Below, in pieces: positions 51,674 to 51,751 of a stretch of DNA of 64,000 nucleotides. The stretch comes from Enterobacter phage vB_Ecl_SABI. The DNA lies in sequence record PQ864023.1. One strand, written 5' to 3'. The position numbers were made by a program, and so were the translations under genes. Under the pieces are notes generated by a model that was not told the origin of the DNA, searched no databases, and worked only from the letters and a program-made list of their open reading frames with translations. Every line of letters starts with the position of its first letter. Position 1 is the first letter of the stretch.

Positions 51674-51751
51674 TGGTTACCCGGACAGGATTCGAACCTG
51701 TATCCCAGTCTTAAGTTCTGGGGGCGTCTTAACCATTAAGCCTACCGGGTA
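51674..51751 (-). tRNA. tRNA-like gene with a canonical T-arm and acceptor stem but irregular anticodon arm (9-nt loop, or UUA/UAA anticodon depending on fold)
   Basis: Minus-strand sequence TACCCGG-TA-GGCT..AGAC-G-CCCCCAGAACTTAAGACTGGG-AT-ACAGG-TTCGAAT-CCTGT-CCGGGTA-A-CCA. The acceptor and T-arm are perfect. The anticodon region cannot form a standard 5-bp stem with a 7-nt loop. Confidence 0.45.

Follow-up and report, generated by a model that had tools for sequence, protein, structure and literature searches.

The window, by which we mean the whole 64-kb stretch of phage DNA analysed here, carries on its minus strand (51751..51674) a tRNA-like gene of 78 nt, including an encoded ACCA, whose product is very probably a functional RNA that does not decode. 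That the element is real and more than a product of chance is confirmed, because homologues with the same architecture occur in many phages and their helices covary. Across this family the hairpin that takes the place of the anticodon arm closes a loop of 3, 4, 6, 8 or 9 nt and sits on a rearranged core, which means that codon reading cannot be what the whole family is selected for. The full reading, in which the gene represents type A of a family that spreads horizontally among enterobacterial phages within their tRNA arrays, and its non-decoding RNA acts by mimicry or as a decoy, is tentative, and we would give it slightly less than an even chance.

The element is the fifth gene of a co-oriented array; the tRNA genes for Asn, Asp, Tyr and Gln, with a second tRNA-like element (X) before the last, lie directly upstream (51755..52162), and the spacer between tRNA-Gln and the element is 3 nt. 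An initial annotation of the DNA had named the four neighbours as canonical Gln-UUG, Tyr-GUA, Asp-GUC and Asn-GUU tRNAs, and ARAGORN calls all four. The 7-bp acceptor stem, perfect T arm, D-loop GG and 3' CCA that it described for the fifth gene agree with the sequence in every detail. Written 5' to 3' (51751 to 51674), the RNA is UACCCGG-UA-GGCUUAAUGGUUAAGACGCC-CCCAG-AACUUAAGA-CUGGG-AU-ACAGG-UUCGAAU-CCUGU-CCGGGUA-A-CCA. The same annotation drew an abnormal anticodon arm with a 9-nt loop, and the minimum-free-energy (MFE) fold bears this out, with a 5-bp central stem closing a loop of that size. The positions of the parts and of the neighbouring elements are collected in the table.

Table. Positions and supporting evidence for the tRNA-like gene, its parts, its neighbours and a second tRNA-like family.
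Feature	Position	Strand	Basis or remark
Whole tRNA-like gene, type A family member	51674..51751	-	Rfam tRNA 33.3 bits; family model R1 92.3 bits
Acceptor stem 5' strand UACCCGG (DNA TACCCGG), first pair U1-A72	51745..51751	-	Perfect pairing with 51678-51684
UA (DNA TA) between acceptor 5' strand and D region		-	Sequence
D region GGCUUAAUGGUUAAGACGCC (DNA GGCTTAATGGTTAAGACGCC)	51723..51742	-	Inner stem CUU/AAG; loop with A14-like A, position 15, G18 G19
Central ('anticodon') arm, stem CCCAG/CUGGG (DNA CCCAG/CTGGG)	51704..51722	-	MFE fold
Central 9-nt loop AACUUAAGA (DNA AACTTAAGA)	51709-51717	-	MFE fold
Two-nucleotide variable region AU	51702..51703	-	U covaries with D-loop position 15, Levitt-like pair
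T arm ACAGG-UUCGAAU-CCUGU, canonical T-loop sequence	51685..51701	-	100% paired, 20 sequences
Acceptor 3' strand CCGGGUA	51678-51684	-	Sequence
Discriminator A and encoded CCA	51674-51677	-	Sequence
tRNA-Asn(GUU)	52162-52088	-	ARAGORN
tRNA-Asp(GUC)	52082-52008	-	ARAGORN
tRNA-Tyr(GUA)	52002-51921	-	ARAGORN
tRNA-Gln(UUG)	51830-51755	-	ARAGORN
Element X, tRNA-like, between tRNA-Tyr and tRNA-Gln	51838-51914	-	Acceptor-like stem GCCGAGUA/UAUUCGGC, T-arm-like AAGG-UUCAUAG-CCUU, UCCA end
Element Y, structured RNA of ~105 nt	51567-51671	-	Starts 2 nt past the CCA of the tRNA-like gene; terminal stem CAGAGUG/CACUCUG, then ACC(A)
67-nt tRNA-like family	KP8 L003:2115-2181; nithesis L002:866-931; L013, L016, L017; 05F01 L001 ~1290-1357

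Two further structured elements flank this part of the array. ARAGORN calls element X as tRNA-Arg(cct) only when its threshold is lowered to 80%; X has no homologue in the phage collection, is absent from the uncultured relatives L088, L012 and L007, and may therefore be a true degenerate remnant. Homologues of element Y that are 76-81% identical are found in 122 phage records, including the T4-like Gelderlandvirus (S16 and Melville), Karamvirus PG7 and the N4-like FBKp27, and in both records inspected (Melville and FBKp27) Y starts at the 3' end of tRNA-Gln. Its core GUGCGAAUCGCGCGAUAGCUGCCAAUGUA is conserved and its terminal stem covaries (AGAGUG to GAAGUG). Y has no Rfam match, and relaxed ARAGORN draws it as an intron-containing tRNA-Arg. 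At the other end of the array, directly upstream of tRNA-Asn, is a 19-nt inverted repeat (52162-52180/52251-52269, CTTATTAATTAAGACACTC/GAGTGTCCTAATTAATAAG) with arms that are 95% complementary and 70 nt apart; it is also present in phages EK8 and phiA41 and may have a regulatory or promoter function for the tRNA array.

At default settings ARAGORN calls the four neighbours and does not call the fifth gene. With the threshold relaxed to 90% (-ps90) it returns 'tRNA-Stop(tta)', which reproduces the second drawing of the initial annotation, a mismatched stem presenting UUA; in this drawing the stem is closed by an A.A mismatch, position 33 is a C and the D stem contains two Watson-Crick pairs. 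U33 is near-universal in tRNAs. Tiny-intron and relaxed ARAGORN models gave only this mismatched UUA drawing. The Rfam tRNA model (RF00005; gathering score 29) matches the gene with E = 1.6e-4, leaving the central arm unaligned, and scores the four neighbouring tRNAs at 60-63 bits. The expectation that prediction tools might place the gene below threshold thus holds for ARAGORN at its default, while Rfam lets it pass marginally. Other family members obtain 40.7, 27.9 or 24.6 bits from RF00005 or no match, most of them being below threshold or unscored. RF00005 is the only Rfam family that matches at the element; neither tmRNA nor YrlA matches there or at the family members.

The body of the RNA has the features of a canonical tRNA: the acceptor stem is 7 bp long, the T stem has 5 bp and closes a 7-nt loop of the T-psi-C type, and G18 G19 are present, with 96-100% pairing in 20 homologues. 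A 5-bp stem with a 7-nt anticodon loop containing U33 and a purine at 37 is missing, as are a 4-bp D stem, a single nucleotide 26 and a variable region of 4-5 nt (or a long one). The element thus falls outside the canonical tRNAs on three of the points that define them: its anticodon loop, its junction nucleotide 26 and its variable region.

Separate searches by blastn and motif scans found homologues in 42, 78 and 14 phage records, well over 100 records in total. The carriers belong to at least five lineages: the N4-like Gamaleyavirus and Kaypoctavirus, Phapecoctavirus together with another Stephanstirmvirinae phage, Vequintavirinae and one Drexlerviridae phage. We sorted the family into five types (A-E) by the central arm. 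Type A comprises the present phage clade and the Klebsiella myovirus 05F01 (Stephanstirmvirinae), with the arm CCCAG-RACUUAAGA-CUGGG (CCCAA/UUGGG in 05F01) and a 9-nt loop. Type B (Gamaleyavirus nithesis, PW8, IME11 and UE-S5a, also ST4, CU10EC and others) has CUAGU-AAACCA-ACUAG with a 6-nt loop, and type C (Kaypoctavirus KP8 and relatives, Mydovirus NDO71) has an 8-nt loop in CAUAG-CAGGCAUG-UUAUG or is drawn with 7 bp and GGCA. Type D (Vequintavirinae A7_1 and UPEC06, Drexlerviridae phiEB49) has a 7-bp stem with a 3-nt loop. Type E (Phapecoctavirus phAPEC8, ESCO5, Mt1B1_P17 and others), which accounts for most of the 78 records in one search, has CACAA-YUUA-UUGUG with a loop of 3-4 nt. The phiEB49 member is the only one that can be drawn with a 7-nt loop, and its stem is then mismatched. 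It and type A show a loop signature that looks canonical, C/U-U-NNN-R-A, which makes decoding by these members conceivable. The discriminator is A, G or C among the relatives (A or G within type A), and the encoded CCA is missing in some type B and all type E members.

Our covariance model of the family, R1, gives its members 77-92 bits and every canonical tRNA of the same loci 44 bits or less. Existing labels are heterogeneous: in GenBank the members appear as tRNA-OTHER, Leu (including Leu(CAG)), Thr or Val, are unannotated, or are covered by spurious hypothetical proteins, and ARAGORN reports type B as 'tRNA-???' with a two-base anticodon. The KP8 paper lists its family member as tRNA-Leu(CAG) (PMC6950046). 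A full-text literature search found no published description of the family. We rejected a bacterial host ancestor, since a motif scan of 185,579 GTDB bacterial and archaeal genomes found no family members and blastn against 5,426 E. coli genomes gave no match, each at the sensitivity used; the GTDB and metagenome motif scans returned mostly ordinary tRNA-Trp and other tRNAs with TAGGCTTA. An all-against-all blastp comparison of the ORFs flanking the members found no protein gene that travels with the element across phage families. It recovered only the backbone synteny of the N4-like phages (a gp49-like ORF and an 81-aa ORF) and spurious translations of tRNA DNA.

The arrays of the carriers contain other unusual RNAs. 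A second aberrant tRNA-like family of 67 nt, apparently without a D arm (UCCGGUG-UA-GGUAC...GUGCACA...GGUUCGAGUCC...GCCGGA-ACCA), is near-identical between Gamaleyavirus and Klebsiella N4-like phages and is labelled tRNA-OTHER in KP8. A 52-nt 'half tRNA', consisting of a T arm, a 3' acceptor strand and ACCA, is found at L002:1006-1057 and L003:1918-1972. Near it a permuted-tmRNA model matches weakly at L003:1655-1757 and L002:425-512 (33 and 29 bits, against a gathering score of 47), which raises the possibility that N4-like coliphages and Klebsiella phages have a tmRNA-like gene in two pieces. In Gamaleyavirus (nithesis L002:1582-1656, L004 and L016) the only canonical-looking tRNA beside the type B element is a tRNA-Ile with anticodon AAU; such an A34 is unusual for bacteria and their phages.

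The window belongs to an N4-like phage (Schitoviridae) and shares ~78% identity with members of Cbunavirus, for example Kc283, phiA41 and EK8. Four uncultured relatives (L007, L008, L012 and L088) have the same element in the same place with 0-2 substitutions. Between L088 and the window the element differs at 0 of 78 positions and tRNA-Gln at 0 of 76, while the flanking ORFs and spacers are only 84-89% identical. In EK8 and phiA41, the closest named relatives, the element is absent and tRNA-Gln or an Asn/Gln chimera runs straight into the downstream ORF, which shows that the element is dispensable. The idea that relatives might hold a normal tRNA at the orthologous position found no support, as they have either the same aberrant element or nothing. 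The phiA41 chimera, annotated as a 'tRNA-OTHER' pseudogene (L006:1672-1754), joins a 5' part of tRNA-Asn to a 3' part of tRNA-Gln; it evidently arose by deletion between neighbouring tRNA genes and illustrates how rapidly these arrays are remodelled.

The proposed structure was evaluated on an alignment of 20 distinct family sequences. Its pairs are formed in 96.3% of the cells, compared with 83.7% in shuffled alignments and 31-51% in slid registers, and 12 of the 22 pairs have changes on both sides. The covariation score is 0.378 versus 0.151 in shuffles, a value reached in none of 500, and RNAalifold independently finds the acceptor, central and T helices. Across the family the acceptor stem has changes on both sides at six of its seven pairs, and the fully paired T arm has two covarying pairs. 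The central stem (helix 4) is 96.8% paired in the tool count, which understates the pairing at the D/central junction because the MAFFT and covariance-model alignments place type B one column off register there. A hand alignment corrects this: the five outer pairs are formed in 97 of 97 cells (20 sequences at pairs 1-2 and 19 at pairs 3-5), with two to five pair types per position and a first pair that is always C-G. The exchange of CCCAG/CUGGG in the window for CCCAA/UUGGG in 05F01 is compensatory, and both stems carry the loop RACUUAAGA. Similarly, KP8 and NDO71 have the loop CAGGCAUG in common over CAUAG/UUAUG and CGCAG/UUGCG, respectively, stems that differ by two double changes. Loops that are kept within a subtype while the stem covaries suggest a partner that reads the loop specifically. 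The element matches the true tRNAs beside it in conservation, although part of this conservation could stem from recent horizontal transfer instead of selection.

The core of the RNA combines invariant tRNA positions with a rearranged D region. U8, A9, the A14-like A, the D-loop GG and UUCGA-UCC of the T loop and T stem are invariant. The nucleotide after A14 covaries with the last nucleotide of the variable region, switching between A:U and G:C twice, once within type A and once within type B, a behaviour that in these alignments looks like that of a 15:48 Levitt pair. Five nucleotides (GGCUU) lie between A9 and A14, three extra nucleotides stand 3' of the D stem before the central stem, and the variable region has only 2-3 nt. 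The GG of the D region can be paired in two ways, either with AC, giving a G.A mismatch, or with the CC that adjoins the central stem, leaving a 3-nt bulge (ACG). All 20 sequences are compatible with G10 and R11 pairing to the dinucleotide that directly precedes the central stem, and type E (Phapecoctavirus) shows a double change there, from GG/CC to GA/UC; the standard 11-24 pair can form in just 9 of these sequences. The GG/CC pairing with the 3-nt bulge is the better supported drawing.

Among the functions offered in the initial annotation was that of an ochre suppressor, a tRNA with the anticodon UUA that would read TAA, and the relaxed ARAGORN call of 'tRNA-Stop(tta)' is in its favour. 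It is disfavoured by the details of that drawing, with its closing mismatch (A.A, and G.A in relatives), C33 and two-pair D stem, by a score below the ARAGORN default and by the loops of 3-9 nt in the homologues. TAA is moreover a common terminator, ending 43 of the 71 likely genes in the window. The suggested check for genes interrupted by an in-frame TAA was made on all stop-to-stop segments of the 64-kb window, taking long in-frame pairs separated by one stop, and revealed no such gene. The long TAA junctions examined are ordinary gene ends: the TAA at 22145 is followed by a terminator hairpin and that at 8482 by an ATG 9 nt later. (The longest ORF in the window is at most 925 aa; N4-like phages encode a virion RNA polymerase of ~3,500 aa, and its gene presumably lies in the ~11 kb outside.) A suppressor is already largely refuted, and we see next to no chance that it is the right explanation. 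Decoding could also be imagined with an expanded loop, in which CUUAAGA acts as a 7-nt-like loop with two extra 5' nucleotides, so that UAA reads UUA and UUG, or a codon of four or five bases is read and programmed frameshifting results. The loop does hold C-U-UAA-G-A, the canonical signature of positions 32-38; RACUUAAGA is conserved in three lineages, the determinants of the L shape are intact, and decoding is known from natural tRNAs with 8-nt loops, for example yeast mitochondrial tRNA-Thr and the suf frameshift suppressors. However, the homologous arm has a 3-, 4-, 6- or 8-nt loop in the sister types, and the core departs from the canonical one by its 3-nt insertion and a variable region of 2 nt. 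The long variable arm of a bacterial tRNA-Leu is lacking and the discriminator is not fixed even within type A. In addition, 05F01 carries a normal tRNA-Leu(UAA) as well, and the codons UUA and UUG show no excess use, at 11.9 and 8.2 per thousand. An expanded-loop decoder is thus quite improbable, and the frameshift tRNA of the initial annotation is, on the same loop-size, discriminator and 05F01 evidence, unlikely for type A.

The arrays of these phages are mosaic and decaying, as the phiA41 chimera exemplifies, the neighbouring element X has no homologue, and the element is absent from the closest named relatives; all of this would suit a functionless, decaying tRNA pseudogene left over from array turnover, as had also been proposed. 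We nevertheless consider a pseudogene improbable, since there are compensatory changes in every helix with the covariation score given above, the loops are conserved within each subtype, the copy in L088 is unchanged between flanks that are 11-16% diverged, and the same non-canonical architecture recurs in five phage lineages and more than 100 records. The chief rival is an element that acts in cis in processing or stability, in which the tRNA shape would be kept so that RNase P and the 3' enzymes cut, punctuating the transcript at the ends of a neighbouring tRNA or the downstream mRNA, or capping it against exonucleases, with no role in trans. The members lie within tight arrays with spacers of 2-6 nt, directly upstream of co-oriented ORFs, the invariant features are only those of the acceptor, T arm and elbow that RNase P and the CCA enzymes need, and the CCA is dispensable in some members, all of which speaks for such an element. 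The flanking canonical tRNAs already provide cleavage sites of this kind, though, and the covarying central hairpin, the type-conserved loops, the 15:48 covariation and the repeated horizontal spread into unrelated phage families are left unexplained. A purely cis-acting role is accordingly unlikely.

For the preferred reading, a functional RNA that mimics tRNA, the steps would be as follows, judging from the array context, the start at U1, the encoded CCA and general tRNA biology. The element would be transcribed together with the array, RNase P would cut at U1, and the 3' end would be trimmed, with the CCA encoded or, where missing, added by the host enzyme. The mature RNA would fold into an L shape and could then occupy a host protein that recognizes the tRNA body. 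Several anti-phage tRNases, for example PrrC, PARIS AriB, retron PtuAB and bacterial Schlafen, cut the anticodon arm of host tRNAs, and phages counter such nucleases with variant tRNAs (PMC13056530, PMC11464382, PMC11555353, PMC10264068). Our preferred guess at the partner is a tRNA-targeting defence nuclease, for which the RNA might be a competitive decoy or inhibitor that escapes cleavage through its replaced anticodon loop; this decoy step is distinctly possible but doubtful. The element behaves as an accessory gene, being mobile between phage families, dispensable in close relatives and transferred with no accompanying protein gene. The lack of a travelling partner suggests that it acts with host factors, and together with the mobility it may lend indirect support to a decoy. 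Mimicry of one particular target tRNA is unsupported, as the loops gave no convincing match, by complementarity or by mimicry, to the host anticodon arms with which they were compared. Mimicry of initiator tRNA, considered for the purine 11:pyrimidine 24 and the weak 1-72 pair, was rejected because both the CAU and the three G-C pairs adjoining the loop are lacking.

It has long been asked why phages carry tRNA genes, a question now linked to the many defence systems that cut host tRNAs. A family that keeps a tRNA body under selection without decoding would mean that tRNA arrays hold more than spare adaptors and, if its members are decoys or inhibitors, would represent a new kind of RNA anti-defence factor. 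In its broadest form the proposal makes this element the first recognized member of a class of accessory RNAs in phages that has yet to be described. These tRNA mimics, which do not decode, would have a rearranged core and a closed hairpin specific to each type, and would pass between unrelated coliphage families, serving to decoy or inhibit immune nucleases that target tRNAs or some other tRNA-binding factor of the host; in that full form we think the proposal somewhat unlikely. The question is directly testable, as several of the coliphages and Klebsiella phages that carry members can be grown in culture (G7C-like, phAPEC8, KP8 and phiEB49). The missing or wrong GenBank labels of the members distort censuses of phage tRNAs, and the 67-nt D-armless RNA, the 52-nt half-tRNA and elements X and Y in the same arrays suggest a wider repertoire of tRNA-shaped regulators in phages.

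Compared with the canonical elongator tRNAs of phages (RF00005), the element has the same location in a tRNA array, 7-bp acceptor, 5-bp T stem with UUCGAAU, G18 G19, U8 with an A14-like A, 15:48-like pair and encoded CCA; it differs in its 9-nt central loop (3-8 nt in relatives), three extra nucleotides between the D and central regions and a 2-3-nt variable region. Among the closest analogues are the T5 tRNA-Lys that acts against PARIS (PMC11464382), the T5 tRNA-Tyr that acts against retron PtuAB (PMC11555353) and the anticodon-loop variants (PMC10264068), all accessory genes borne on arrays and departing from the host in the anticodon arm. Those nuclease-evading tRNAs decode and replace the cleaved host tRNA, whereas the present family has no usable anticodon loop throughout and could serve only as a decoy or inhibitor. 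Structurally deviant tRNAs that standard finders miss or mislabel are known in the 8/4 and 9/3 acceptor/T tRNAs (PMC5389517) and in the expanded-loop frameshift suppressors, but these keep a functional 7-nt (or 8-nt) loop and are aminoacylated, while the element deviates in both core and central loop and its loop size is not conserved. A tRNA-like acceptor/T module used outside ordinary decoding is shared with B. cereus tRNA-Other, the T4 stable RNAs C and D, YrlA (PMC4201824) and the tRNA-like domain of tmRNA. Unlike YrlA and tmRNA, the element retains the full four-arm cloverleaf outline and a normal tRNA length. The T4 RNAs C and D are, as the element is, encoded in phage tRNA clusters. Both these T4 RNAs and Bacillus cereus tRNA-Other are non-decoding tRNA-like small RNAs.
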